Assembly: GCA_041690395.1 (NCBI GenBank)
Contig: JAWLHJ010000002.1
Location: 721,199-775,842 of the forward strand
Direction of reading: 5' to 3'
Length of the DNA: 54,644 nucleotides
DNA from: Longimicrobiales bacterium
GTDB lineage: Bacteria; Gemmatimonadota; Gemmatimonadetes; Longimicrobiales; Gaopeijiaceae
The position numbers and the translations under genes were made by a program. The notes under the pieces were generated by a model. The model was not told where the DNA came from and did not search any database. It was given only the letters and a program-made list of their open reading frames with translations. Shown one piece after another: positions 39,634-54,644 of the stretch; the first letter of the stretch is position 1, and each line of letters begins with the position of its first letter.

Positions 39634-41547
39634 ATGCGCCCTCCAGCGGTTCGCATCCCGCCCTCGCCTCCGGAGCCGTCCCGCTTGACCCACTCCGAGC
39701 TCCTCATCGGCATCGCCGCCATCTTCGTCCTCGGCATCGGCGCGCAGTGGATCGCCGCCAAGCTCAACACTCCGTCCATCCTGCCGCTCCTGATCCTCGG
39801 CTTCATCGCCGGCCCCGTCACCGGGCTCGTGCGGCCGGACGAGATGTTCGGGGATCTCCTCTTCGTGATCGTGCCCCTGGCCGTCGGCGTCGTGCTCTTC
39901 GAGGGAGGCATGACGCTGTCCATCTCCGAGATCCGGAGCCATCACGGCGTCGTGCGCCGCCTCATCACCACCGGCATGCTCGTCACGTGGGGCATCGCCG
40001 CCGGCGCGGCCATCGTCATCCTGAACCTCTCTTCGGGGATCGCGGTCCTGTTCGGCGCCGTGATCGTCGTGTCCGGCCCCACGGTCGTCGGCCCGCTGCT
40101 CCGCTCCGTCCGCCCGCGCCCGCGCATGCGCACGATCCTGAACTGGGAGGGGATCCTCATCGATCCCATCGGCGCGACCCTCGCCGTGATCGTGTTCGGC
40201 ATCCTGATCGCCGGCGGCGGCTCGCTCACCGGCGGGCTCGGCGGCGTCCTTTCGACCCTGGCGGCGGGCGCGATCGTCGGCCTGATCGGGGCCGGCGCGA
40301 TGGTCCTGCTTCTCAAGGGATACCTGATCCCCGATCGCATGCAGGCTTCGGTCACGCTGGCGGCCATCGTGACCGCGTTCGTCGTCTCCGATCTCATACG
40401 GCCCGAATCCGGGCTGCTCGCCGTCACCCTCATGGGGATCGCCCTCGCGAACCAGCCCTTCGTGCCCGTCGGTCGTATCGTGGCCTTCAAGGAGACCCTC
40501 CGGGACCTCCTCATCGCCGCGCTCTTCATCGTGCTCGCCGCCCGGCTCGAGATGGAGGACGTGCTGTCCGTCGGCTTCGCAGAGGTTCTCTTCCTTTCGG
40601 TGATGGTGCTTCTGGCACGGCCGCTCACCGTGTTCATCTCCACCCTCGGCTCCGATCTCAGCCAGCGCGAGCGACTGTTCCTGGCATGGGTCGCCCCACG
40701 CGGCATCGTCGCCGCCGCCGTGGCCTCCGTCTTCGCGATCCCGCTGGAGGCGCAGGAGATCGTCGACGCCGACCGGCTCGTGCCGCTCACCTTCTTCGTC
40801 ATCGTCGGAACCGTCGCGCTCTACTCGCTGACCGCCAAGGTCGTGGGACGCCTGCTCGGCGTCGTCGACGAGCGCCCCGGCGGGCTCACCATCGTGGGCG
40901 CCAACCCCGTCGCGCGTGAGCTCGCCAAGTCCCTGGCCGATGCCGGGGTCGAAGTCCAGCTCATCGCCACGAACCATTCGGAGCTCACCAAGGCCCGGAT
41001 CGAAGGTCTAGACGCCGTGCGGGCCAGCGTGCTGGACCAGGTCTCCGAGGAGACCAGCGGCATCCTGCTGATCGCCACGCCCAACGACGAGTTCAACACC
41101 CTCGCCGCCATCCGCGCCGTCGAGTCGCGGGACCGGGCCCACGTCTATCAGCTCGCGCCGTCGGGCGGGAGCGACACCGCGGCCGCCCGGCCGCGCGCCC
41201 GCCTCTTCGTGTCCCCCGAGCTCACCTTCATCATGGCCTCGGAAGCGATGCTCGCGGGGGGCACCTTCCGCGGCACCGCGCTCACCGAGCAGTTCACCTT
41301 CCATGATTACCGGAAGCGCTATGGGGACCGGGCGATCCCCACCTTCCTCGTGGAGCGGAAGCGCCTCGTCGGGGTCTTCAGCGCGGACTCGTCGCTCACG
41401 CCCTCGCCCGGACAGATCGTCGTGTCCTTGATCACGCCCGAGGTCCCCGCGCCCGCGACGGTCGACGAGGAGGAGGTCATCGAGGCCATGGAGCGGAGCG
41501 GGCCCACGGGCCCGGAGGGGACGGGGCCGACCGGCTCGGGGACGTAG
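39634..41547 (+). CDS. CPA1 cation/H+ antiporter with C-terminal RCK-like domain
   Basis: LFEGG, SGPTVV.PLL, WEGILIDP.GA, APRGIVAA; start may be TTG at 39685. Confidence 0.88.
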   Translation: MRPPAVRIPPSPPEPSRLTHSELLIGIAAIFVLGIGAQWIAAKLNTPSILPLLILGFIAGPVTGLVRPDEMFGDLLFVIVPLAVGVVLFEGGMTLSISEIRSHHGVVRRLITTGMLVTWGIAAGAAIVILNLSSGIAVLFGAVIVVSGPTVVGPLLRSVRPRPRMRTILNWEGILIDPIGATLAVIVFGILIAGGGSLTGGLGGVLSTLAAGAIVGLIGAGAMVLLLKGYLIPDRMQASVTLAAIVTAFVVSDLIRPESGLLAVTLMGIALANQPFVPVGRIVAFKETLRDLLIAALFIVLAARLEMEDVLSVGFAEVLFLSVMVLLARPLTVFISTLGSDLSQRERLFLAWVAPRGIVAAAVASVFAIPLEAQEIVDADRLVPLTFFVIVGTVALYSLTAKVVGRLLGVVDERPGGLTIVGANPVARELAKSLADAGVEVQLIATNHSELTKARIEGLDAVRASVLDQVSEETSGILLIATPNDEFNTLAAIRAVESRDRAHVYQLAPSGGSDTAAARPRARLFVSPELTFIMASEAMLAGGTFRGTALTEQFTFHDYRKRYGDRAIPTFLVERKRLVGVFSADSSLTPSPGQIVVSLITPEVPAPATVDEEEVIEAMERSGPTGPEGTGPTGSGT

Positions 41548-41820
41548 GCTTCGCGCCGGAGGCCGCAGCGCCCCGCGTGTCCGTCCTTCCGGCCCAACAG
41601 GTCCGTGAGCCGCGGAGCCCCGGCGGAGCCCCGAACGCATCGTCTTCCCGCGCCGTGGGGTCCGTAGGCCCCAGCCCCCGAGGCATCCCCTTCCCACGCC
41701 GCGACGTCCGCAGACCCAGCCCCCGAGACATCGCCTTCCCCAGCCACGACCCACAACGAGGTGCCCACGGCCGTCCCGTTCCGGCATTCCCTCGCCCCGC
41801 GTCTCCGTGCTCCTTGCACC

Positions 41821-43101
41821 ATGCGCAGAGAGCCCGCCGTGACTGTTCGCGTCCACCCCCAGGAGGACCGCATCCTCATCCGATTCGGATGGCGTCGCTT
41901 CGCCGCCGTGCTCGACGCCGTGAAGGCACTCGCCGGGCGCCGCTACCTCCCGGAGCGGGCGCTCTGGAGCGCCCCCGCCCCCGATGCCGCCATCCGATCT
42001 CTCCAGCAGGCGTTGGGGAGGGATGAAGTGTGGATCATCGACGACCGTCCGTTGCTCGGGCCCGAGCTGCCGGCGGGGTGGACCAAGCCGGACGATCGGA
42101 ACCGGCCGGAGGGTCGACATCGGCGCACCACGGCGCAGGCGACCCGACCGGAACGCCCCACGGAAGCGCACCCGGCACGCCCCACCCGCGCCGATGCCCG
42201 AGACCCGGCGCGTCTCGAGCCATCCGACGCCCCAGCCCCCTCGCGGCTCGACCCGACGGGCGACGAGCTCCTGGCGCGCGTCCACGCTGCACTCGACCTC
42301 AGGGGATACAGTCCGCGCACGCGGAAGGTCTATCTAGGCCACCTCCGCCGATTCTTCGAGTGGTGCGGGGGCGGCACCCCGAAGCTGCCGGAAGATCCCG
42401 CGCGGAGTGCGCAAGCGTACCTCCTCGAGCTCGTACGTGGGCCCGGTATCTCGAAGAGCTACCATAACCAGATCGTGAGCGCCCTCCGGTTCCTGTGCGA
42501 GACCGTGCTCGGGCAGCCCCGGCTCGCGCTCCGGATCCCGAGGCCCCGGAAGGAGCGGAAGCTCCCCGCGGTGCTAAGCCCCGGCGAAGTCGCCCGCATA
42601 CTCGGCAAGACCCGGAACCTCAAGCACCGAGCGCTGCTCATGCTCCTCTACAGCGCCGGCCTCAGGGTGGGCGAGGTGGTCCGGCTCACACCCGCCGATC
42701 TCGACATGGATCGCGGGCTCGTGCGTGTGCGCGGCGGCAAAGGCGGAAAGGATCGGTACACATTGCTGGCCCAACGAGCCATCGAAGCCGTGCGTCTCTA
42801 CCGGGACGCCTATCCCGCACGCCCGTGGCTGTTTCCCGGTGGTATGAAGGAGACCCACCTGACGACGCGATCTGTCCAACGCATCGTCCAGGAAGCTGCC
42901 GAAGCCGCCGGCATCGAGAAGCACGTCACGGCCCACACCCTCCGTCACAGCTTCGCCACCCATCTCCTGGAGGGCGGCACGAACCTCCGCGTCATCCAGG
43001 AGCTCCTCGGCCACCAGAGCGCGAGGACGACCCAGGTGTACACCCACGTGGCCCGGTCCACCCTGGAAACCGTGAGGAGCCCGCTGGACAACCTGGAGTG
43101 A
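41821..43101 (+). CDS. Tyrosine recombinase of an integron-like element (SAM-like plus catalytic domains, extra N-terminal domain, no IntI-specific insertion)
   Basis: YSPRTRKVY, LPAVLS, YSAGLRVGE, GKGGKDR, HTLRHSFATHLLE, LGH, TQVY, terminal RSPLD; start uncertain (41761/41821/41839). Confidence 0.92.
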   Translation: MRREPAVTVRVHPQEDRILIRFGWRRFAAVLDAVKALAGRRYLPERALWSAPAPDAAIRSLQQALGRDEVWIIDDRPLLGPELPAGWTKPDDRNRPEGRHRRTTAQATRPERPTEAHPARPTRADARDPARLEPSDAPAPSRLDPTGDELLARVHAALDLRGYSPRTRKVYLGHLRRFFEWCGGGTPKLPEDPARSAQAYLLELVRGPGISKSYHNQIVSALRFLCETVLGQPRLALRIPRPRKERKLPAVLSPGEVARILGKTRNLKHRALLMLLYSAGLRVGEVVRLTPADLDMDRGLVRVRGGKGGKDRYTLLAQRAIEAVRLYRDAYPARPWLFPGGMKETHLTTRSVQRIVQEAAEAAGIEKHVTAHTLRHSFATHLLEGGTNLRVIQELLGHQSARTTQVYTHVARSTLETVRSPLDNLE

Positions 43102-43189
43102 AGCGGACCGGATCTTCGGGCCAGATCGGGTCGATGGGCGGTGGGCCACAGGCGGGGCGACCGGAGGCCGGGCCCCCGACGCGATTACC

Positions 43190-43218
43190 TTGCGCCTTAT
43201 CGACAGCCGGTGAACAAT
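43190..43218 (+). promoter_or_regulatory. Candidate cassette promoter (Pc-like)
   Basis: TTGCGC-17bp-AACAAT about 110 bp upstream of the putative attI, pointing into the array. Confidence 0.3.
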
Positions 43219-43318
43219 GCCAGGGTCGGAGCCAAGCCGTCAGGCGCCTCTAATATCGGGACTCTCGACGTCGGAAATCCCCCCGAGAAAGAGCGTAAAG
43301 CGACACTTTGCTTCGGCA

Positions 43319-43332
43319 ATAACCAGTTATGG
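43319..43332 (+). other. Putative attI-type primary recombination site (crossover near G43326/TT)
   Basis: ATAAC-CA-GTTAT palindrome; gttatggaacattggc pairs with gccaacgtcccataac before the first attC; downstream sequence matches the start of the last cassette (54569). Confidence 0.75.
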
Positions 43333-43740
43333 AACATTGGCCGAGCGGTTCGGTTTCTTGCGTCGGCTCCCTATGACGGAGGGCTTGCACGGTCGCGGCG
43401 CGGGGCTCCCCTCTGCCCCCTTTGGGGGCTCTGTAGTTTCCCGTCCGCGCCTGAGCTGGAGCCGACGCTAGACCCGCAGCTTCATCGTCATCTTCCTTGC
43501 TCAGAGGACCCGGCTACCCGATCGCCAGTGGCTCCCTGCGTCGGCGGGGCGAGTGCCTCGAAGGAGGCGCGGCTCCCTTCGTCGCGATCCCGAGAGACCA
43601 GCGCTGTAACTGAGCTCAGGTTCTTGAAGTGAAGTTCTCTCGGAGCCGCGCTTTCTCCGGGGGTAGGCCCGCCGACGCCAGGCGGAGTGCTTGGTCTCAT
43701 CGGGCGGGCTCACGTGGACATCGTGGAAGCCAACGTCCCA

Positions 43741-43891
43741 TAACAAGTATGTTTCTGGGTCCGCTCACTTCGTTCGCTCCCCCTACATGGCCTTACGATC
43801 GAACGTGGCCCGGGAGCGGATCGCAGTGTATTCTCCGGCAGGTAAGCGTGGGCCGGCTGATGGGGGCCACGTCAGAAACATCTGAACGTTA
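43741..43891 (+). repeat. attC-like site 1 (core type B)
   Basis: TAAC-aagt-ATGTTTCTG...ACATGGCC...GGCCACGT-CAGAAACAT-ctgaac-GTTA. Confidence 0.9.
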
Positions 43892-43948
43892 TCGGTCATT
43901 GCAGGCCGGGCATGAGGGCAGGCGGGTCGCGAACGGGCCTCCACTGGA

Positions 43949-44335
43949 GTGAGCGTGCATATTCCGGGACTTGAGATTAGGGAGCCACTGGAGCATCGCC
44001 CCATTCGTGGAACAATCCATGGTGGTTCCGTGGGGATCCTGTTCGGCGTTCTGGCTGTCGTCGGTGGAGCAGATGGTGGCACTCTGTTCGGCGGATACAC
44101 CGCCGGCTGCGCGGCGGCAGGTCTCGTTATTGGGTCTGCCCTGCCATTGTTCCGGTCGAGGGTGCTGGCTGGAGTAGTCGTGGCCGTTGCTTGGTCAGTC
44201 GGCCACGGGATTGCGACTCAACTCTGGGGCCAAGAGATGGGATTCCCGCTTGTGGCCTCGGTCGGGATGGCGATGGGATTCGCCTACGCCGTCTTGCTGT
44301 GGGACTACAAGTCAACAGGAGTAGCGCCGCATTAG
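43949..44335 (+). CDS. Cassette 1: hypothetical 4-TM membrane protein
   Basis: Single hydrophobic ORF inside the cassette; duplicated in cassette 2. Confidence 0.6.
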   Translation: MSVHIPGLEIREPLEHRPIRGTIHGGSVGILFGVLAVVGGADGGTLFGGYTAGCAAAGLVIGSALPLFRSRVLAGVVVAVAWSVGHGIATQLWGQEMGFPLVASVGMAMGFAYAVLLWDYKSTGVAPH

Positions 44336-44513
44336 TGGTGCGCTAAGGTTTCGACCTTAGGGGCACTGCCAGCGTGAGTCAGCCGACATGCCGTCTTGGT
44401 AGTGCCTCGTGGCCTGTGACTAGGCGACGCGTCCTTCAACTCTAGCTCGCGAGGGGACGAAGGTCGGTTTCACCGCCCGGACTGGTGTTGTCCGGCAAGC
44501 CTGCAACGACCGA

Positions 44514-44669
44514 TAACAAGAATGTTTCCGGCTCCGCTCACTGCGTTCGCTCCGACCTACATGGCCTCGAGCGTTTCAGGTCCGTAGACTGGGTGCAGTG
44601 ACGTAGGTTCCGCTTCTGTTCGCATGTAAGCAGTGCGGCGGTGGCCACGTCGGAAACATCTGAACGTTA
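44514..44669 (+). repeat. attC-like site 2 (type A)
   Basis: TAAC..ATGTTTCCG...CGGAAACATCTGAACGTTA. Confidence 0.9.
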
Positions 44670-44727
44670 TCGGTCATTGCAGGCCGGGCATGAGGGTCAG
44701 GCGGGTCGCGAACGGGCCTCCACTGGA

Positions 44728-45114
44728 GTGAGCGTGCATATTCCGGGACTTGAGATTAGGGAGCCACTGGAGCATCGCCCCATTCGTGGAACAATCCATG
44801 GTGGTTCCGTGGGGATCCTGTTCGGCGTTCTGGCTGTCGTCGGTGGAGCAGATGGTGGCACTCTGTTCGGCGGATACACCGCCGGCTGCGCGGCGGCAGG
44901 TCTCGTTATTGGGTCTGCCCTGCCATTGTTCCGGTCGAGGGTGCTGGCTGGAGTAGTCGTGGCCGTTGCTTGGTCAGTCGGCCACGGGATCGCGACTCAA
45001 CTCTGGGGCCAAGAGATGGGATTCCCGCTTGTGGCCTCGGTCGGGATGGCGATGGGATTCGCCTACGCTGTCTTGCTGTGGGACTACAAGTCAACAGGAG
45101 TAACGCCGCATTAG
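44728..45114 (+). CDS. Cassette 2: near-identical copy of the cassette 1 membrane protein
   Basis: Same protein except GVAPH versus GVTPH. Confidence 0.6.
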   Translation: MSVHIPGLEIREPLEHRPIRGTIHGGSVGILFGVLAVVGGADGGTLFGGYTAGCAAAGLVIGSALPLFRSRVLAGVVVAVAWSVGHGIATQLWGQEMGFPLVASVGMAMGFAYAVLLWDYKSTGVTPH

Positions 45115-45298
45115 TGGTGCGCTGAGGTTTCGAGCTTAGGGTCCGAAGAGCACTGCCAGCGTGAGTCAGCCGACATCCCGTCTTGGTAGTGCCTCGTGGT
45201 CTGACTAGGCGACGCGTCCTTCAACTCTAGCTCGCGAGGGGACGAAGGTCGGTTTCACCACCCGGACTGGTGTTGCCCGGCAAGCCTGCAACGACCGA

Positions 45299-45453
45299 TA
45301 ACAGGAATGTTTCCGGTTACGCGGGCTGCGCCCGCTCCACCTACATGGCCTCGAGCGCTTCGGGTCCGTATGCTGGGTGCAGTGACGTGGGTTCCGCTTC
45401 TGTTCGCATGTAAGCTGTGCGGCGGTGGCCACGTCGGAAACATCTGAACGTTA
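45299..45453 (+). repeat. attC-like site 3 (type A)
   Basis: Same consensus as the other repeats. Confidence 0.9.
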
Positions 45454-45598
45454 TATGACATCGCCTGAGGGGTTCTGAGGGGTCGAGGCGACCCTTTGAG
45501 GGGAGTTGAATAGGATTTAACGGAGCCCTTGCGTTAAAAATTTTGGCGCACGATTTTAATGTCCTCACGCCCCATTAAAGCCTCCTTCCCCCACTCGA

Positions 45599-46744
45599 AT
45601 GGACACTTCGGCTTTTGGCCCGAAGTCCCCTGGCAAGCTGGTTCCCGTATCGGGTGTTCGGGACGTTACGCACGCCTTTTGCCCGGAGCCTCTGCCTCCG
45701 AACTGGACGTTTCCGGCGGCCTTATGGCCGCTCCTCACGGACGCCCGAGTCGCTTTGGCGGACCTGAACGGGGTTGGTCGATATCTGCCTAATCCCGACC
45801 TGTTACTGCGCCCGCTCCAGAATCGAGAGGCACAAAAATCCTCGAGTCTTGAGGGGACGTACACGGAGCCCGAAGAGCAGATGCTGTTTGAGCTCGAGCC
45901 CGAGTTGCCCCGAGACGTGGCAGATCCCCGAAATGCTCGCAGGGAGGTCTCAAACTACGCTCGGGCTCTGCGGATCCGGCGCGAGAAGGATGAACTACCC
46001 CTCTCCTGGAGGCTGACCAAGACGCTTCACGAGGTCTTGATGGATGGGGTCCGTGGGTCGGATCGCGCCCCGGGGGAATTTCGGCGGCTCCAGAATCAAA
46101 TCGGTCGGCCGCCCAGATTTGTCCCCCCGCCAGCACATCTCGTCCCAGACCTACTCGACAACTTCGAGAAGTACTTGCATGCTGACGACGGGTTGGACCC
46201 TCTCGTACGTGCTTTTGTAGCGCACTATCAATTCGAAACCATCCATCCGTTCATGGACGGAAATGGCCGCGTCGGAAGACTGCTCCTCGCGATATCGATT
46301 GAGGAGTGGTGCGGACTATCGGCACCTTGGCTCTACATGAGCGACTTCTTCGATAGGAACAAAGACGACTACATCGACCTCATGTTTGCCGTGAGTTCCC
46401 GCGGAGACTGGGAGAGTTGGATCCGTTTCTGCCTCGAGGGAGTCGTGATTCAAGCCAAGGACACTGCCGCACGTTGCGGAGCACTGATTCAATTGAATAG
46501 GGACTTCCACGAGCGGGTCAACCAAATGGGTGCCAGCATCAGGCTCTCGGCTCTGGTCGACGACCTCTTCTTGAATCCCATGGTACGCGTGACGGACGCG
46601 CGAGATCGCCTCAGTGTAACCTACCCCACGGCCCGCAGTGATCTCCAAAAGCTTGAGCGAGCCGGAATCGTCCGGCTCCTGAAAGGAGCGCCACAGCTGA
46701 CTTACTTCTCCGGCCCGATCCTGAACACTATTTACGGCGATTGA
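45599..46744 (+). CDS. Cassette 3: Fic family protein with N-terminal domain and C-terminal wHTH
   Basis: HPFMDGNGRVGR Fic motif; EAQKSSSLEGT inhibitory-like motif; VTYPTARSDLQKL HTH. Confidence 0.92.
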   Translation: MDTSAFGPKSPGKLVPVSGVRDVTHAFCPEPLPPNWTFPAALWPLLTDARVALADLNGVGRYLPNPDLLLRPLQNREAQKSSSLEGTYTEPEEQMLFELEPELPRDVADPRNARREVSNYARALRIRREKDELPLSWRLTKTLHEVLMDGVRGSDRAPGEFRRLQNQIGRPPRFVPPPAHLVPDLLDNFEKYLHADDGLDPLVRAFVAHYQFETIHPFMDGNGRVGRLLLAISIEEWCGLSAPWLYMSDFFDRNKDDYIDLMFAVSSRGDWESWIRFCLEGVVIQAKDTAARCGALIQLNRDFHERVNQMGASIRLSALVDDLFLNPMVRVTDARDRLSVTYPTARSDLQKLERAGIVRLLKGAPQLTYFSGPILNTIYGD

Positions 46745-46781
46745 TGGGTTGCTCCAGACGGTTCGGTGGGGCGACGTCATA

Positions 46782-46930
46782 TAACAAGAATGTTTCCGGG
46801 TCCGCTCGCTGCGCTCGCTCCCCCTACATGGCCTTCAGGCTGTCGTGGCGCTGGAGCAGATCGCAGCGTATTCTCGGGCAGATGGTTCAGACGGTCCGGT
46901 GGTGGCCACGTCGGAAACATCTGAACGTTA
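46782..46930 (+). repeat. attC-like site 4 (type B)
   Basis: Same consensus as the other repeats. Confidence 0.9.
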
Positions 46931-46978
46931 TGTGAAACTGGCCTCGGATTGAGGCCGATCGTGTGGACCCTCCCGAGC

Positions 46979-47007
46979 TTGCTACTGTACCACGTTTGTG
47001 GTACTAT
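46979..47007 (+). promoter_or_regulatory. TA cassette promoter with overlapping palindromic operator
   Basis: TTGCTA-17bp-TACTAT; GTACCAC-gttt-GTGGTAC at 46987-47004. Confidence 0.75.
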
Positions 47008-47013
47008 GTGCCC

Positions 47014-47319
47014 ATGGGTTTCTCCTCCGCGAAGCGAGCGCTCCTGGCCGCCCTCGAGGTTGGCAACTTCCAGCACGAGGCCCGGGAGGTTCTCAGCGAG
47101 AAGAACCTGCTGGCCGTCGGGGACATCTCCGTGGACGAGGTCATCGGCATCGTGAAGCGGGCTCGCGGCCCGGACTATTCGGCGTCGCCTCATCACTGGG
47201 ATCCGGGCACCGAGGTACACGTGTTCCGGCCGACGGTCGAAGGGACCCGATGGTATGTGAAGGCCTACTTCCTTGAAGAACCCGAAGGAACTGCGGTCTT
47301 CATCAGCATTCACCGGTAG
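47014..47319 (+). CDS. Cassette 4: putative MqsR/RelE-superfamily toxin
   Basis: 101 aa, C-terminal WYVKAYF...VFISIH as in MqsR-like RNases; toxin-first gene order. Confidence 0.65.
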   Translation: MGFSSAKRALLAALEVGNFQHEAREVLSEKNLLAVGDISVDEVIGIVKRARGPDYSASPHHWDPGTEVHVFRPTVEGTRWYVKAYFLEEPEGTAVFISIHR

Positions 47320-47325
47320 GACGAC

Positions 47326-47916
47326 ATGAAGATCATCGAAGAAGGTACGAGGGGTGTTGCTCTAGCTCCGGAGCGCGGGAAGGTCCCCGTGGTATTCGAA
47401 TACCGTGACCTGACCCTGGACTCTGGAGTCGTGGTCAAGGACGTCCTCGTTGGGGTGGCTGAGGACACGGGAGAGGTCCTCACCGTTCCGGCCCAGTCCA
47501 CGCCTCGGATCAAGCTGGCCAGGCTGGCGGCGAAAGATGAGACGTTCTCGGTCCGCATCCCATTCGAGCTGAACGATATCCTGTGGGGTGTGTCTCACGA
47601 GCTCGGAGCGAATCCGACGAAGTTCAACTCTGCGTTGATCCGGTTTTATCTACATGAAGCGACCGACAGCCGGACCATGGCCCGGAGGTTGAAGAGGCTC
47701 TCGACTTCCGACCTAGCCGCGAAGTCCTCGAAGACCAAGCTCACCCTCCGGTCCGACTCGGATCTTCTTGAACGGGTCAAGCAGGTCGAAGAGAGAGAGG
47801 GGGTCTCTCGGAGTGAGCTGGTGAGAGGGGCCGTGATCGCAATGAAGGAAGATGTTTTCGACCGGCCGAGGAAGGGTCGCTTGGGTCAGCTAAGAGCCAT
47901 TGCTGAGGCGGTCTGA
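47326..47916 (+). CDS. Cassette 4: putative antitoxin (MqsA-like N-terminus, RHH-like C-terminus)
   Basis: V.DVLVGVAEDTGE resembles the MqsA C..CGE motif; two RHH-like segments. Confidence 0.6.
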   Translation: MKIIEEGTRGVALAPERGKVPVVFEYRDLTLDSGVVVKDVLVGVAEDTGEVLTVPAQSTPRIKLARLAAKDETFSVRIPFELNDILWGVSHELGANPTKFNSALIRFYLHEATDSRTMARRLKRLSTSDLAAKSSKTKLTLRSDSDLLERVKQVEEREGVSRSELVRGAVIAMKEDVFDRPRKGRLGQLRAIAEAV

Positions 47917-47941
47917 TTTGGCCGACCAGGCCAGCATCACA

Positions 47942-48092
47942 TAACAAGTATGTTTCCGGCTTCGCTCACTTCGTTCGCTCCGACCTACATGGCCTCGAGC
48001 GAATGTGGTCCGGGAACCAAGTGCAGCGTATTCTCGAAGTGAAGGTCCGACCACAGTTCGTGGTGGGCCACGTCGGAAACATCTGAACGTTA
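47942..48092 (+). repeat. attC-like site 5 (type B)
   Basis: Same consensus as the other repeats. Confidence 0.9.
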
Positions 48093-48341
48093 GCCGACAC
48101 CCTCAGACAGGTGCGGTAGGCGGGGTGGCCGCAACGAGCTTCTTGGGTTTCGGTCTCTTGGGCGGCTCCTGCGGGGTCGCCGGGTGGCTCAGCGAACCGT
48201 CTCTCTGAAATTCTCCCCTTCCCCGCCCAGGAGCTCAGGCCCCAGCAACCCACAACGCAACGCGACAAGCGCCAAGAGTTCAAAGTCTCGGGTCTAGGGT
48301 CGCGCGCTGAAACGTTCCTTGGTCTGAGGGCATCGGCTAAC
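48089..48341. other. Cassette 5: ORF-less cassette body (253 bp)
   Basis: Homologous to 51811-52065 and 52213-52466. Confidence 0.75.
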
Positions 48342-48493
48342 AAGAATGTTTCCGGCTCCGCGGGCTTCGCCCGCTCCGACCTACATGGCCTCGAGCGTCT
48401 CAGGTCCGTAGACTGGGTGCAGTGACGTGGGTTCCGCTTCTGTTCGTCTGTAAGCCGCGCGGCGGTGGCCACGTCGGAAACATCTGAACGTTA
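48338..48493 (+). repeat. attC-like site 6 (type A)
   Basis: Same consensus as the other repeats. Confidence 0.9.
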
Positions 48494-48581
48494 TGTGTAA
48501 TTGCCCTGGTGCCGGGGGATTGGGTTCAGATGGATGTCGCGAGGCTGATGCGTTCGCGTTGACCCAGGCGGTGATGAGCGA

Positions 48582-49784
48582 ATGAAGGGACTCGGAGTTC
48601 TTCTAATCCTGGGCATGTTCGCATGTGATCGTGCGGACCCACCTGAGGCCAGTGGGATTCCGACTACGACGTCGTCTCCACCGTACCCGGAGTGGTCACT
48701 GAGCTCCGAGCCTGACGTCCGCATCGGGGCGGTGGACGGGCCGCCGGAGTACCAGCTTACCCGCATCGGACTTGCCGGACGTCTAACCGACGGAAGGATC
48801 GTCGTGTTCGATAACGGCTCGTCTGAGCTGCGTTGGTTTGGTCCCGACGGAGGATTCCAGGCGCGAGCGGGAGGTCCCGGCGAGGGTCCAGGCGAGTTCC
48901 GGAGCGTGGTCAGCGCAGCCGTGACTCCACAGGACTCGGTCGTTCTGTATGACTTCAGGAATCAGCGGCTGACCTGGCACGGACCGGACGGAGTTCTCGG
49001 TCGCACCCTGCGGGCCGAGCTACATCCTTCCATGAGGCTCGTTTCCCGCCAAGACGAGCGCATCGTCATTGCGGAGGAACGGCCGGCGTTGAATCTAGGC
49101 GGTGCTGAGTACAACTACGCCCGGGACTCGGTCCTGATCATGTTAACCGGCAGCACGACACAGCCTCTCGACACCTTGGTGCACCGTGCCGGTCGAGAGG
49201 CGGCGACCTGGGTCGAGTACGCGGACGGAAGACCAATCGGCACTCGACAGCTCGGTCTGCCCTTCAGTCATCCGACACTCGTCGGAGCCGCAGCAGAAGG
49301 GATCGTGCTCCTGGAGAGCGGACGGTCTGAACTGGCTTTCCTGGATGATGAGGGCCAGGTGGTTCGGATGGCACACCGTACGGACGTGGATTCCCCTGCT
49401 CTTTCAGCTGTTCTGCGCCAAGAGTACGTGAGGAACGCCGTGCAGTCGGCGAGAGAGAGAGACGTTCCGGAACAGCCCGCTCGAGCTGCGGCCGAAGGTC
49501 TCCTCGCGGTGATCCCGGAAGGACATAGAGTGTCGCCCTTCGACCGCATGCTGACAGACCCTGTCTCGGGAAGGATCTGGGTCCGTGACTATCTGTTCGA
49601 TTGGAATGCCGGGGGAGCTCAGTATTGGACGGTGCATGATTCGCTCGGCCACGTCTTAGGGCGAGTCGCAACTCCGCCGGGACTTGAAGTCATGCAGGTG
49701 GGCTCCGATTTCGTGGTCGGAGTCGAGCGAGACCAGTTGGGGGTGGAGTATGTTGTCGCGTACTCGCTGGAGGGCTCCGACTAG
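48582..49784 (+). CDS. Cassette 6: lipoprotein, probable 6-bladed beta-propeller
   Basis: Lipobox MFAC; GGPGEGPGEF NHL-like motif; GRIWVRDY. Confidence 0.75.
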   Translation: MKGLGVLLILGMFACDRADPPEASGIPTTTSSPPYPEWSLSSEPDVRIGAVDGPPEYQLTRIGLAGRLTDGRIVVFDNGSSELRWFGPDGGFQARAGGPGEGPGEFRSVVSAAVTPQDSVVLYDFRNQRLTWHGPDGVLGRTLRAELHPSMRLVSRQDERIVIAEERPALNLGGAEYNYARDSVLIMLTGSTTQPLDTLVHRAGREAATWVEYADGRPIGTRQLGLPFSHPTLVGAAAEGIVLLESGRSELAFLDDEGQVVRMAHRTDVDSPALSAVLRQEYVRNAVQSARERDVPEQPARAAAEGLLAVIPEGHRVSPFDRMLTDPVSGRIWVRDYLFDWNAGGAQYWTVHDSLGHVLGRVATPPGLEVMQVGSDFVVGVERDQLGVEYVVAYSLEGSD

Positions 49785-49877
49785 ATGCGGATCGCGCGCG
49801 AAGAAGATCTTTGGGTTCTCCTCTCGGCGGCACCGCCGGTAACCGCATCGGTTTAGGTTGAGCCGGGCAACTACACA

Positions 49878-50027
49878 TAACAAGAATGTTTCCGGGTCCG
49901 CTCGCTGCGCTCGCTCCCCCTACATGGCCTCGAGCTGTCGGACATCGTAAGCTGTCAGTTGAACTCGGTGCGTTTCAGCAGAGAAAAGCGCATATGCTGG
50001 GGCCACGTCGGAAACATCTGAACGTTA
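49878..50027 (+). repeat. attC-like site 7 (type C)
   Basis: Same consensus as the other repeats. Confidence 0.9.
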
Positions 50028-50058
50028 TGTGAAACAGCTCCCCGCCTGAGGGAACGCG

Positions 50059-50628
50059 GTGGCATCGGAAGCAGGAGAATTGAACAGGGACACCCTGCCC
50101 GAGGTTATCGAGACGGAACGACTCGTCCTTCGACCGTTCCAACTCGGTGACGTGGAAGATGTCCTGGCCTATGCTCAGGATCCTGAATGGGCCCGCTTCT
50201 TGAGGGACCTCCCTCAGCCCTATGGACGGGCCGAGGCTGAGCAGGCTGTCGCCAAGCAGCTCCTGATGGACCGGGTTCGAGAGCCGAACTGGGCCTTGGT
50301 CTTTGAAGGCCAAGTCATCGGAGGCGTGATCCTATTGTTGGATTTCTCGAACAGGTCCGCCGAGGTCGGCTACTCCGTGGGCCGCAAGCAATGGAATAAG
50401 GGGTTGGCTACGGAAGCCGTCCGCGCCGTCATCGATGCGGCATTCTCCACACATGAAGATCTCAACCGGGTGTGGGCGAGGACGGATCCGGACAACGTGG
50501 CTTCCCAGCGGGTGCTCGAGAAGGTGGGAATGACGAAGGAAGGCGTTCTGCGTCTGAGTCGGGTGTACAACGGAGAGGCGTTCGACGAAGCGTACTTCTC
50601 TTTGCTTCGGACAGAACGGGGAGCGTGA
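50059..50628 (+). CDS. Cassette 7: RimJ/RimL-family GNAT acetyltransferase
   Basis: IETERLVLRPF, AEVGY, WNKGLATEA, NVASQRVLEKVGM..EG. Confidence 0.92.
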   Translation: MASEAGELNRDTLPEVIETERLVLRPFQLGDVEDVLAYAQDPEWARFLRDLPQPYGRAEAEQAVAKQLLMDRVREPNWALVFEGQVIGGVILLLDFSNRSAEVGYSVGRKQWNKGLATEAVRAVIDAAFSTHEDLNRVWARTDPDNVASQRVLEKVGMTKEGVLRLSRVYNGEAFDEAYFSLLRTERGA

Positions 50629-50659
50629 TCGACGGGGTACGGCGGGGAGCTGCATCACA

Positions 50660-50814
50660 TAACAAGAATGTTTCCGGTTACGCGGGCTGCGCCCGCTCCA
50701 CCTACATGGCCTCGAGCGCTTCGGGTCCGTATGCTGGGTGCAGTGACGTGGGTTCCGCTTCTGTTCGATTGTAAGCAGCGCGGTGGTGGCCACGTCGGAA
50801 ACATCTGAACGTTA
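50660..50814 (+). repeat. attC-like site 8 (type A)
   Basis: Same consensus as the other repeats. Confidence 0.9.
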
Positions 50815-50826
50815 TCGGTCATTGAA

Positions 50827-51060
50827 TCACGACCATGGTGCAGAGACTTCTCCGTCTAGCTCGTCGAGCTTCCGCTGCATGAAGGCTCGGGCATCTTGCA
50901 CTGCTTGGTTGTAAACGTGGGGCCCGACCTCATCGAGGCAGAAGTCAAGTAACTGGGACGCGCGGAACGAGCTCAAGGTCTCGTCGAACTCCTCCAGATA
51001 GAACCCCTGGATACGGAGAATCAGCTGCTCGCGTCGCTCGTCTGAGAGCCTCAGAGTCAT
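50827..51060 (-). CDS. Cassette 8: DUF2164 family protein
   Basis: IQGFY.EE...LLDF...EVGP.VYNQAVQDA. Confidence 0.8.
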   Translation of the reverse strand: MTLRLSDERREQLILRIQGFYLEEFDETLSSFRASQLLDFCLDEVGPHVYNQAVQDARAFMQRKLDELDGEVSAPWS

Positions 51061-51118
51061 CGGGTTTGTCCGTCCATTTCTTGCGTTAGAGAAAGAGTAC
51101 GATGGCCCACAGTGAAAG

Positions 51119-51625
51119 ATGAAGCTAACCGAGCCCAGGATCGAACGATCTCACCACATGAGGTTGGTTGGACTCAGTGCGCGGATGTCCTTTGGCGAGC
51201 CAGCCATGTCAGAGCTGTGGCGGACTTTTCGTCCGAGAGCCCGGCAGATCGGGAATCGGAGGAGCCAGGACTTCGTCTCCATGCGCGTGTTCGTTCCTCC
51301 GCTGAAGACCATGCCCCGGCTGGATTCCCCGTTCGTGCAGTGGGCGGCCGTTGAGGTCCACGACTTCGATCACGTTCCCGAAGGCCTCGACACGTGCGTG
51401 GTGCCGGAGGGTCTCTATGCAGTCTTTGTCCATCACGGTACAGCGGAGAGCTTCGGCCGAACGGCCCAGTTCATTTTTCGAGATTGGTTGCCGCAGTCTC
51501 CGTATCAGCTAGCACCCCGGGAGTTCTTCGAGATTCTTGGTCCAGACTATCGTCCGGACGATTCCGATGCATCCGAAGAGGTCTGGATACCTGTCGAACC
51601 TCGGCTACCAAGGCAGAGTGACTGA
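51119..51625 (+). CDS. Cassette 8: GyrI-like small-molecule binding protein
   Basis: LVGLS, LW..F, WAAVEV, VPEG, GLYAVFVH.G, IF.DWLPQS.Y, EEVWIPV. Confidence 0.88.
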   Translation: MKLTEPRIERSHHMRLVGLSARMSFGEPAMSELWRTFRPRARQIGNRRSQDFVSMRVFVPPLKTMPRLDSPFVQWAAVEVHDFDHVPEGLDTCVVPEGLYAVFVHHGTAESFGRTAQFIFRDWLPQSPYQLAPREFFEILGPDYRPDDSDASEEVWIPVEPRLPRQSD

Positions 51626-51664
51626 AGATGGGGCCGATCGTGTAGGTGATGATTCAACGACCGA

Positions 51665-51814
51665 TAACAAGAATGTTTCCGGCTCCGCTCACTTCGTTCG
51701 CTCCGACCTACATGGCCTCGAACGTGCAGGCATCGTATGCTGGCAGGTGAACTCGAAGGTTTCAGGTAAGATGAGCGCATATGCGGTGGCCACGTCGGAA
51801 ACATCTGAACGTTA
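51665..51814 (+). repeat. attC-like site 9 (type C)
   Basis: Same consensus as the other repeats. Confidence 0.9.
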
Positions 51815-52065
51815 GGCGACATCACTGAGCAGGTGCGGTAGGCGAGGTGCCCGCTATCAGCTTCTAAGGTTTCGGTATCTCGGGCGGCTCCTTCAGGGTA
51901 ACCGGCCGGCTCAGCGAGCGGGATCTCCACTGAGGTCCCCCTTCCCCGCCCGAGAACTGAGGTTCCATCGAACCTCGTCGCATCGCAACCAGCGCCAAGA
52001 GTTCGAAGTCTTGGGTCTAGCTTTCACCGGCTGGAACGTTCAATGGCTCAGTGACGCCGCCTAAC
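51811..52065. other. Cassette 9: ORF-less cassette body (255 bp)
   Basis: Homolog of cassette 5. Confidence 0.75.
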
Positions 52066-52216
52066 AAGAATGTTTCCGGTTGCGCGGGCTTCGCCCGCTC
52101 CACCTACATGGCCTCGAGCGCTTCGGGTCCGTAGACTGGGTGGAGTGACGTGGGTTCCGCTTCTGTTCGCATGTGAGCCGTGCGGCGGTGGCCACGTCGG
52201 AAACATCTGAACGTTA
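52062..52216 (+). repeat. attC-like site 10 (type A)
   Basis: Same consensus as the other repeats. Confidence 0.9.
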
Positions 52217-52466
52217 GCCGACATCGCGGAGCAGACGCGGGAAGCGGAGTGCCCGCGACGAACAACTGAGGTCGGTATTTCGGGCGGCTCCCTGCGGGGT
52301 CGCTGAGCGGCTCAGCGAACGGACTGAGATCAGGGGTCACCCCACTCCTCCACCCCGTTTCGGACCTGACATGGCCCACAGATCGCGGGGGAGCGCCAAG
52401 AGTTTGGAGGTCCAGGGTCTAGTTTCACCCCCAGCTACGTTCGTTGGCTCCGCGACGCCGGCTAAC
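52213..52466. other. Cassette 10: ORF-less cassette body (254 bp)
   Basis: More diverged homolog of cassettes 5 and 9. Confidence 0.7.
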
Positions 52467-52617
52467 AAGAATGTTTCCGGTTACGCGGGCTTCGCCCGCT
52501 CCACCTACATGGCCTCGAGCGCTTCGGGTCCGTATGCTGGGTGCAGTGACGTGGGTTCCGCTTCTGTTCGCATGTAAGCCACGCGGCGGTGGCCACGTCG
52601 GAAACATCTGAACGTTA
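52463..52617 (+). repeat. attC-like site 11 (type A)
   Basis: Same consensus as the other repeats. Confidence 0.9.
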
Positions 52618-52669
52618 TACGCCATTGGCCTAAGGGTTCGGTTTCACTTCCGGGTGGGGAGGCGAACAG

Positions 52670-53191
52670 ATGGGACGAACGGGAGCTTCCGCATCGCCTA
52701 CAGCTTCCCTATGCCTTTTCCTCATCGGACTCGCAGCCTGTGCCCCGGATGCTCAGCAGCACCTGGTAGAGCAGTTAGCTGAACCCGTCTCGGCCAACCC
52801 TGGATGTTACGAGGTATCTGGCACCACTGGCTTCCCCGAAGGAATTTTCGATCTGTATCTCCCCGAGGCCTTTCGGTTGCGGCCGCCCCGGCAGTCGGTC
52901 GCCGACGGGCACATCTTCAGTTATGCCGTCGAGTTCTTGAGCGTACCCGAGCGCTACCGCCCTTTCAATCGCATCGGAGAGGCGAGGAGCATACGCCCTG
53001 ACTCGCTGCTGGTCGTCTGGGACGGGGTAGTCCAGCGATTCCAGATCCGGCAAGATGGAGCGCTCACGGGGATCGTCACTCTCAGGAGACCGGAGATCGA
53101 GGTTCTCGGTGAGGTTGAGGCCCACCTGGTTGATTGTCCTACCGAGGAAGCTCCGACTGCCCCTCAAGTACCGTTCCCTGGAAGTGGCTGA
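52670..53191 (+). CDS. Cassette 11: hypothetical lipoprotein
   Basis: GGAGG RBS; lipobox LAAC. Confidence 0.6.
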   Translation: MGRTGASASPTASLCLFLIGLAACAPDAQQHLVEQLAEPVSANPGCYEVSGTTGFPEGIFDLYLPEAFRLRPPRQSVADGHIFSYAVEFLSVPERYRPFNRIGEARSIRPDSLLVVWDGVVQRFQIRQDGALTGIVTLRRPEIEVLGEVEAHLVDCPTEEAPTAPQVPFPGSG

Positions 53192-53296
53192 GGACGCAGC
53201 GAGCGACAAGTAGCTTTCTCGGGACTCGGAGGCTGAGAGCGCTTCGGCTCAAGGGTGAGGGCCAAGGACTGTAGGGAAGCGACGGCCAACGGCGTA

Positions 53297-53452
53297 TAAC
53301 AAGAATGTTTCCGGCTCCGCTCACTGCGTTCGCTCCGTCCTACATGGCCTCAAGCGTCTCAGGTCCGTATGCTGGGTGCAGTGACTTTGGCTTCGCTTCT
53401 GTTCGCATGTGAGCAGTTCGGCGGTGGCCACGTCGGAAACATCTGAACGTTA
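53297..53452 (+). repeat. attC-like site 12 (type A)
   Basis: Same consensus as the other repeats. Confidence 0.9.
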
Positions 53453-53585
53453 TACGACAAAGCGCAGGTTGTAGGGAGCAGGTCGGTAGGCCCGGACCAA
53501 GGACCTGGGTCGGTTCCGTCGGGCACGGACGTACAGATACGAGAGGCCGCCTGATCCGCTCGATCTCACGAATGGGAACCCCAGC

Positions 53586-54308
53586 TTGGAGAACGCTCAC
53601 GCCGGCCAGGTAGGAAGATCCGAGAGCGCCCGAGCCGGCGTGGCCGCCGCGGCCATCTTCCTGTTCGCAGTAGGGGCCTCCGCTGTGCTGACCTGGTCCA
53701 ACGGAAGCGTGTATAGCTTCCTATTCGGCGGGCTCAACCCCCTCCTGGTGACTGCAGCCGCCGCCCTTTTTGGAGTCGCTGCGCTTCAACGCCTTGCCCT
53801 TCTCGGGTGGTTCCAGGCTGGGGGCGCCAGTACTCGTAGCGTCGCGCTCGCCTCGGTGCTCGGTGCAGCCCTGACCGTTCCGGTCATCGTCATCGATCTC
53901 TTCGGTGGCTTTCCGGCCGAGCTGAATGTTCGGTTTCCGGAGTCCTTACTCTTCTATCCGTCCATCGCCGTGGTTGCGGAGTCGGCCTTTCATCTGGTGC
54001 CCCTGGCCCTGATGGCGATGGTGTGGAGGTGGACTTCCCTGGAGTTCTCGCGCGCTCGGCTCTTTGCGATCGGGATTGCTGCGGTAATCGAGCCGGTTCT
54101 CCAGGTGGCCTGGGGGAGTGAGATGTTACCGAGTTGGGCGAATGCCTACGTCGGCATCCATCTCTTGGTCTTCAATGTGGTCGCGCTCGAGATCTTCCGA
54201 CGCTCTGGGTTCGTTGCGCTCTATGGGTTCAGAGTCGGGTACTATCTCGTTTGGCACATCACCTGGGGCTACTTCCGACTTCCGCTGCTCTTCGAGAGCG
54301 GTACTTAG
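53586..54308 (+). CDS. Cassette 12: polytopic membrane protein, weakly CPBP/Abi-like
   Basis: About 7 TM segments; AESAFH and YYLVWH motifs; start uncertain. Confidence 0.65.
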   Translation: MENAHAGQVGRSESARAGVAAAAIFLFAVGASAVLTWSNGSVYSFLFGGLNPLLVTAAAALFGVAALQRLALLGWFQAGGASTRSVALASVLGAALTVPVIVIDLFGGFPAELNVRFPESLLFYPSIAVVAESAFHLVPLALMAMVWRWTSLEFSRARLFAIGIAAVIEPVLQVAWGSEMLPSWANAYVGIHLLVFNVVALEIFRRSGFVALYGFRVGYYLVWHITWGYFRLPLLFESGT

Positions 54309-54422
54309 GGAGGTGGCGGGCAGATTCCGGATGCGCGTGGATCTTGGACTGGAACCGGCTGGCACTTGTTTTGGGGTCAACCGCCGGTTGGGCCGGGCGT
54401 CGCGGGCCTGCGCTTCGTCGTA

Positions 54423-54572
54423 TAACAAGAATGTTTCCGGGTCCGCTCCCTGCGGTCGCTCCCCCTACATGGCCCGGAACGGGTGTGGCTCGAGAACGAA
54501 GTGCAGCGTATTCTCGATCAGGTCCGCGTGGACCGTCCGGTGGTGGGCCACGTCGGAAACATCTGAACGTTA
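54423..54572 (+). repeat. attC-like site 13 (type B)
   Basis: Same consensus; followed by a truncated cassette 13. Confidence 0.9.
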
Positions 54573-54644
54573 TAGGACATTGGCCCGAACGGTTCGGTTT
54601 GTTGCGTCGGCTCCCTCTTTCGGAGGACTTGCACGGTCGCGGCG

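Follow-up and report, generated by a model that had tools for sequence, protein, structure and literature searches.

The closest described counterparts of the locus reported here are the IntI integrases and sedentary chromosomal integrons, in which a recombinase built of a SAM_4 domain and a catalytic core is accompanied by a single docking site beside its gene, crossover takes place at G|TT, and YAAC...GTTR hairpins that favour the bottom strand mark the limits of each cassette. All of these features recur here. As described in the literature, the I2 insertion of the integrase works through interaction with attC (PMC4792948) and is essential for integron function (PMC8138268, section 7). The latter text describes the insertion as incompletely conserved in an 'integron-like subgroup' akin to the present enzyme, and in its accessible part an N-terminal domain and arrays go unmentioned. 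Gemmatimonadota and Bacteroidota are listed in PMC8618304 among the phyla with integrons or integrase-less arrays. Lambda Int-type recombinases carry, like the enzyme here, a small N-terminal domain on a tether; DNA binding by the domain is predicted in our case, and unlike that of lambda Int it has a HARP-like fold, and its predicted target is the structure of the DNA and not a set of arm sequences. The locus encodes a conserved, HARP-related domain on a recombinase without I2, and adjoins cassettes whose ends are self-complementary, with mismatches that favour the bottom strand. The combination of a HARP-tethered, I2-less recombinase with an array points to an alternative mode of integron operation.

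The window, by which we mean the whole stretch of DNA analysed, comprises 54,644 nt of a Longimicrobiales bacterium (GCA_041690395.1, contig JAWLHJ010000002.1, positions 721,199-775,842 of the forward strand), and the recombinase gene, docking site, array and attC-like sites described in it are on its + strand. The recombinase gene (41821..43101) encodes 426 amino acids. Pfam recognises a core-binding SAM-like domain, SAM_4 (PF13495; residues 150-233, 42268..42519), and a catalytic domain (PF00589; residues 252-411, 42574..43053), and the RKHRHY catalytic set is complete (R282, K307, H372, R375, H398 and Y407), which identifies the core as that of a tyrosine recombinase. The spacing from GLR to HxLRH is 95 aa, against 136 aa in IntI, so the I2 insertion is absent. 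The IntI model TIGR02249 scores 213 bits in two stretches, below its cut-off of 265, and NF040815, a model whose name, 'site-specific tyrosine recombinase/integron integrase', speaks of no N-terminal domain or arrays, comes near with 211 bits against a cut-off of 220. IntI forms a clade with an SH-aLRT of 100 in a quick tree, as all our trees are, and the recombinase falls outside it. Its gene differs from that of IntI further in being co-oriented with the array. A whole-genome search returned one enzyme of this type and no other, and the IntI model has no match in the genome at E<=1e-75. Pfam finds no SNF2 or helicase motor in the protein, which is thus not of the SMARCAL1-type annealing helicase architecture, and no arm-binding domain. 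No sigma-70-like match for a cassette promoter Pc was seen within 41500-43500. Three 36-nt repeats with a spacing of 45-46 nt (41624-41750) stand directly upstream of the recombinase start.

The extra N-terminal domain and its linker, proposed in a first-pass annotation of the sequence, are borne out. Residues 1-78 (41821..42054) are globular in the AlphaFold model, with a mean pLDDT of 87.9 and the element order b-b-a-b-b-a-b, and residues 79-146 (42055..42258) form a linker of 68 aa that is 51% Pro/Arg/Ala. The same annotation had allowed that the true start might lie near 42260, or that the region might not be conserved in homologs, and neither holds. There is no in-frame ATG, GTG or TTG between 42053 and 42300, which excludes a downstream alternative start, and a search with residues 1-85 found, among 841 candidates, six database homologs, all of which share the start Met, with identities of 69-85% across the domain. 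A longer start, GTG at 41761, could extend the frame, but the homologs stop short of it. The linker, which is probably flexible, varies among homologs in sequence and, several-fold, in length, while the domain stays conserved: a 61-row alignment retains K/R35 (98%), G39, R40 (97%), an aromatic residue at 42 (100%), W49 (61/61) and P52. Compared with a relative of the same genus, L006, differences at codon positions 1, 2 and 3 number 7, 8 and 19 over 80 codons of the domain, and 9, 9 and 83 over 279 codons of the core. The substitution pattern of the domain is that of coding sequence, yet laxer than that of the core, and the domain evolves faster.

The domain is very probably of HARP-type homology. 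It shares with HARP (PF07443; 4o66), the UvsW N-terminus and the XPB DRD an alpha/beta fold of about 75 residues with the same element order, and with the HARP family the motif K..P.R.Y/W......W and an N-terminal, often tandem, placement before a DNA-acting enzyme. It differs from the domains of HARP helicases in that a long linker ties it to a tyrosine recombinase, an SNF2 or helicase motor being absent, and in that it lies, as a single sequence, below Pfam detection. In the accessible literature the N-terminal domain of UvsW is itself named a HARP domain (PMC4666394), and the XPB DRD is likened to the MutS domain that recognises mismatches (PMC3353954). The case rests on the convergence of a sequence profile and a predicted structure on one small family. 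A 7-row profile of the domain, run over 1.84 billion representatives, matched 64 proteins, including 7 SNF2 helicases and 16 recombinases of this type; 32 of the 64 match Pfam HARP at E<=0.01 and 16 reach or exceed its 25-bit cut-off, these being whole-protein scores. Three matches (P0008, P0035 and P0037) are repetitive, gave no domain match on re-scoring and were dropped. Against 177,635 PDB sequences, the 61-row profile has a sole match at E<0.001, the HARP domain of SMARCAL1 (4o66, E 1.8e-4), and the alignment pairs K35, R40, Y42 and W49 with SMARCAL1 HARP residues. Pfam HARP is matched by 22 of the 61 aligned homologs at E<=0.05 (best 2.5e-6); the query is not among them and has no match to PF07443. 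The HARP-like fold suggested by the first-pass annotation is thus backed by the profile and the model, and not by the query sequence taken singly.

The predicted model has a HARP/UvsW/DRD fold. Compared with 48,161 chains, its ranks 1-4 are taken by the XPB DRD (Z 5.5 and 5.2, rmsd 2.2-2.4, 55 residues aligned) and the UvsW N-terminus (Z 5.3, rmsd 2.5, 64 aligned), at modest Z-scores of 5.2-5.5, all below 8, a level that the comparison tool calls common. Foldseek by itself gave nothing at E<=0.001, with 4o66 at rank 16; its top rows, a Prp protease at E of about 0.01, were set aside as non-significant. Searches with the domain as a single sequence gave no match in Pfam, only a weak ParB stretch in NCBIfam, one chance match in the PDB, only unnamed clusters below 0.9 in the Atlas, and none in phage genomes. 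The same small alpha/beta fold is also matched by eIF1-like and ACT-like proteins (Z 4-5), and stand-alone proteins consisting of two or three HARP-like copies occur among the profile matches. Both observations would suit a module for protein interaction or regulation, engaging a host factor, oligomerisation or auto-inhibition and not DNA. We hold this to be improbable, as the conserved basic and aromatic positions align with the substrate-recognition domain of SMARCAL1 and the best structural matches are DNA-recognition domains.

Recombinases carry the domain in one to four copies, with two, three and four in tandem seen in P0064, P0053, P0060 and P0027. Eleven proteins of 240-345 aa (P0009-P0012, P0014, P0015, P0017, P0019, P0025, P0031 and P0044) hold three HARP-like copies joined by acidic, Pro-rich linkers, and no other domain was found in them. 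A Bacteroidales recombinase, L106, has an N-terminal extension of similar size which lacks the conserved Trp and was missed by the profile; it is possibly a degenerate copy.

Downstream of the recombinase lies an array of 13 complete cassettes (43327..54644), co-oriented with the gene and reaching the contig end. A putative attI-like docking site (43310..43343) has its inferred crossover at G|TT, 43326/43327; it is marked by the beginning of cassette 1 at that point, and the end of cassette 1 can pair with the sequence from 43326 onward, to which it is complementary. L065, the nearest relative, has an equivalent attI-like site at equal distance. The window contains 13 attC-like sites of 149-156 nt each. 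The first (43741..43891) reads TAAC, 5 nt, an 8-bp stem, a loop region of about 110 nt, the stem, 7 nt and GTTA, and shows a compensatory change in its stem. Another (44514..44669) is flanked by identical cassettes and is therefore equal to the site of an excised circle; its folding energy is -47.1 kcal/mol for the bottom strand (z -6.0) and -43.7 for the top. Eleven more, spanning 45299..54572, start at 45299, 46782, 47942, 48338, 49878, 50660, 51665, 52062, 52463, 53297 and 54423. The end of contig C1 of the same genome (G000) bears 33 left-end and 28 right-end site matches, about 30 more sites, and since both runs meet contig ends, the C1 run probably continues the array of the recombinase. 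A few sites of the same type also occur far from the recombinase (G000 C5:381254-385185 and C6:27192-28680).

The ends of the cassettes are self-complementary, cassette by cassette. Over 41 cassettes, start and end of the same cassette pair at 10.2 of 12 positions; shuffled partners pair at 5.05, with a maximum of 6.15 in 2000 shuffles. Two of these cassettes show poor pairing and probably extend over a missed site. Between start and end there are 57 A·C mismatches and 3 G·T, which gives the bottom strand the better pairing. All 8 positions of the inner stem are paired in 39/39 sites, with compensatory changes in four, and the spacer measures 5 nt on the left and 7 nt on the right. The L box of canonical attC sites holds an extra-helical base, and this base is absent from all 39 sites with a perfect inner stem. 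The sites depart from attC also in the 5/7-nt spacer, with its surplus on the right arm, in an outer complementarity of about 16 nt and in an invariant A·C at position 11. The locus holds a full platform, with a recombinase, an adjoining docking site and an array with self-complementary sites. Judged by sequence, the array would follow the logic of an integron, and the recombinase presumably performs it.

Counted from the G of GTT, position 11 has A at the cassette start opposite C at the cassette end in 41 of 41 cassettes of this genome, with starts at 43327-53450 in the window and the rest at the C1 end. Behind HARP-bearing enzymes of other genomes the A·C occurs in 64 of 73 cassettes, found by a detector blind to this position, and in 2 of 26 chance matches from shuffles. 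The genomes of these HARP-bearing enzymes span Gemmatimonadota-like relatives, Bacteroidota, Spirochaetota and Bacillota; the mark is recorded at L061-L068, L072, L082-L085, L089, L098, L100, L102 and L112, of which L082 has no HARP domain. On the folded bottom strand, the A·C would correspond to a T·G wobble. HARP bears a direct likeness to MutS, and a T·G wobble would make an inviting target for a fold that resembles a mismatch sensor. The tyrosine recombinase core contacts 11-13 bp, a footprint that takes in position 11, so the core may read the mark.

In a survey of 301 genomes of the class, 28 carried the domain, at 29 places in all. At 22 of them it sits on an I2-less recombinase whose core is intact, and at one on an IntI; five fall on recombinase frames that are truncated or broken, or at the end of a contig, and one is probably spurious. 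I2 is hence absent in 22 of 23 domain-bearing relatives with an intact catalytic core. Where at least 10 kb is available downstream, I2-less HARP relatives have arrays in 6 of 7 cases; at L067 the repeats lie upstream only. In a GTDB sample of 79 recombinase loci, selected by catalytic motif from the best 80 of 603, 25 genes have an in-frame domain and another, which is frameshifted, has two copies, by a profile iterated on that same sample. Among these loci a cassette follows 8 of 26 with the domain and 1 of 53 without, and, where at least 3 kb is available downstream, 6 of 11 and 0 of 38, by detectors tuned to this site type and with canonical attC arrays outside their scope. Five of the 11 have no cassette by the strict detector, and looser ones find two of these positive. 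A contig end lies within 2 kb on the downstream side of 15 of 25 HARP-bearing genes of the sample, and on the upstream side of 2 of 25. The loci without the domain comprise 19 IS91-type, 9 Xer, 12 IntI and 13 short or other enzymes, by labels assigned from the tree and the N-termini.

Kin are not independent of one another, and only two independent pairs remain if branches must be well supported (p=1 in a sign test). The co-occurrence of domain and arrays, which the first-pass annotation had put forward as a check, stands as a raw count and does not stand as phylogenetically independent evidence. A domain that is an inherited and largely dispensable passenger, on a core that handles duplex-mimicking hairpins alone, would be compatible with this uninformative comparison and with L082, where a cassette is found without the domain. 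It also has a precedent in XerCD, which recombines the folded single-stranded site of the CTX phage without I2 (PMC4792948). We nevertheless regard the passenger explanation as highly improbable: the domain is retained in Gemmatimonadota, Bacteroidota, Spirochaetota and Bacillota as well as in an archaeon, has been amplified up to four times, and shows the coding pattern of substitution. The use of the CTX site by XerCD, taken with the action of I2 through attC, makes an I2-less route plausible.

Two loci bear on the question of whether the domain stands in for I2. At L069:8323-9792 (- strand; G333:C178), a full IntI with I2 (TIGR02249, 325 bits, cut-off 265) is fused to a HARP-like domain, and in a quick tree with more IntI rows it nests inside IntI. 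No array was found within 8 kb downstream or 14 kb upstream of it. P0032 and L041 resemble partial further cases of HARP with I2. The statement that canonical IntI lacks such a domain consequently holds as a rule, with none among the 30 best-scoring loci from 73 genomes with a match and none among a separate 12 IntI loci (best 80 of 603), and fails in the case of L069. The second locus, L082:2236-3201, encodes a short recombinase with no I2 and no HARP domain in frame or upstream, and its downstream cassette scores 13.6 of 14. This cassette carries the position-11 mark, so neither cassette nor mark needs the domain in cis. An earlier quick tree, in which L069 was unresolved at the base of IntI, had suggested HARP with I2 as an ancestral intermediate; this was abandoned once more IntI rows placed L069 inside. 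Topology tests reject the grouping of every HARP-bearing row in one clade (p-AU 4.8e-5); for a clade that unites the I2-less HARP enzymes with three short relatives they decide neither way (p-AU 0.25).

The domain could be conceived as an obligatory replacement for the I2 helix, docking on the core, reading a structural mark and blocking the second strand exchange. The lack of I2 in nearly all intact-core relatives, the absence of the domain from the sets of 30 and 12 canonical IntI loci and the missing extra-helical base of the L box all agree with such a role. It is none the less unlikely, since L069 has both elements and L082 neither, while keeping its cassette, and since a several-fold variation in linker length and one to four copies are unlike a fixed docking element. 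L069, L082, the variable linker and the copy number favour an accessory, modular role over strict replacement of I2.

In the accessory role that we prefer, and to which we give about an even chance, the tethered HARP-like domain senses non-duplex DNA and helps the I2-less recombinase to find and hold the predicted hairpin of the site. By analogy with integrons, the folded bottom strand of the attC-like site would recombine at G|TT with the attI-like site in its double-stranded form, and the resulting junction would be resolved by replication. The domain may bind the ss/ds junctions of the hairpin, at its 5/7-nt bubble and its branched loop, or else the invariant position-11 T·G wobble, and such binding would add affinity and a preference for folded over duplex sites. 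It would act as an accessory avidity module, present in one to four copies, sometimes lost and found also on a true IntI, and not as an obligatory substitute for I2. Having no ATPase, the domain would not act as an active folding motor; the earlier descriptions of it as 'ssDNA-binding' and as a help in folding are probably imprecise.

The domain might act on the product or the place of the reaction instead, holding an atypical Holliday junction or tethering the enzyme to replication forks, where hairpins form and the junction is resolved. HARP proteins work at forks and four-way junctions (PMC4035279 and PMC4666394), replication resolves integron junctions (PMC4792948), and a long tether would fit; IntI performs the same chemistry without the domain, and we consider this rather unlikely. 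A wider and tentative proposal, which we rate below the accessory role, is that of a second, widespread integron class, in which an I2-less recombinase carries a tethered HARP/MutS-like mismatch sensor that reads, in the folded bottom strand, the T·G wobble lying 11 bases away from the crossover or the asymmetric bubble, the sensor being modular, multiplied to as many as four copies or grafted onto IntI.

Models for calling integron integrases are built on the I2 insertion. If I2-less HARP enzymes run arrays of at least 40 cassettes in several phyla, such integrons would have been missed or filed as integrase-less arrays. With this system one can test directly which properties allow a tyrosine recombinase to act on folded single strands, and the position-11 mark can serve as a simple detector and singles out the one base pair to alter in an assay. 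The openly accessible literature searched yielded no description of a HARP domain on a recombinase or of I2-less cassette arrays.

Tandem cassettes 2 and 3 (43889-44666 and 44667-45450) are near-identical, 99% over 300 nt, which suggests a recent duplication, and a cassette related to cassette 1 turns up again at 54570 and on C1. Several cassettes measure only about 250 nt; they belong to a few related types and recur at scattered places in the array (48090-48340, 51812-52064 and 52214-52465), with six more copies on C1; they are too short for a typical gene and are possibly promoter or RNA cassettes. Cargo genes lie at 45599-46744, 46963-47916, 48582-49784, 50059-50628 and 51119-51625. The cargo includes a Fic-family protein, a two-gene pair whose second gene has a weak CopG antitoxin match, a beta-propeller-like protein, and further genes which we take to encode a RimJ-like acetyltransferase and a GyrI-like protein.
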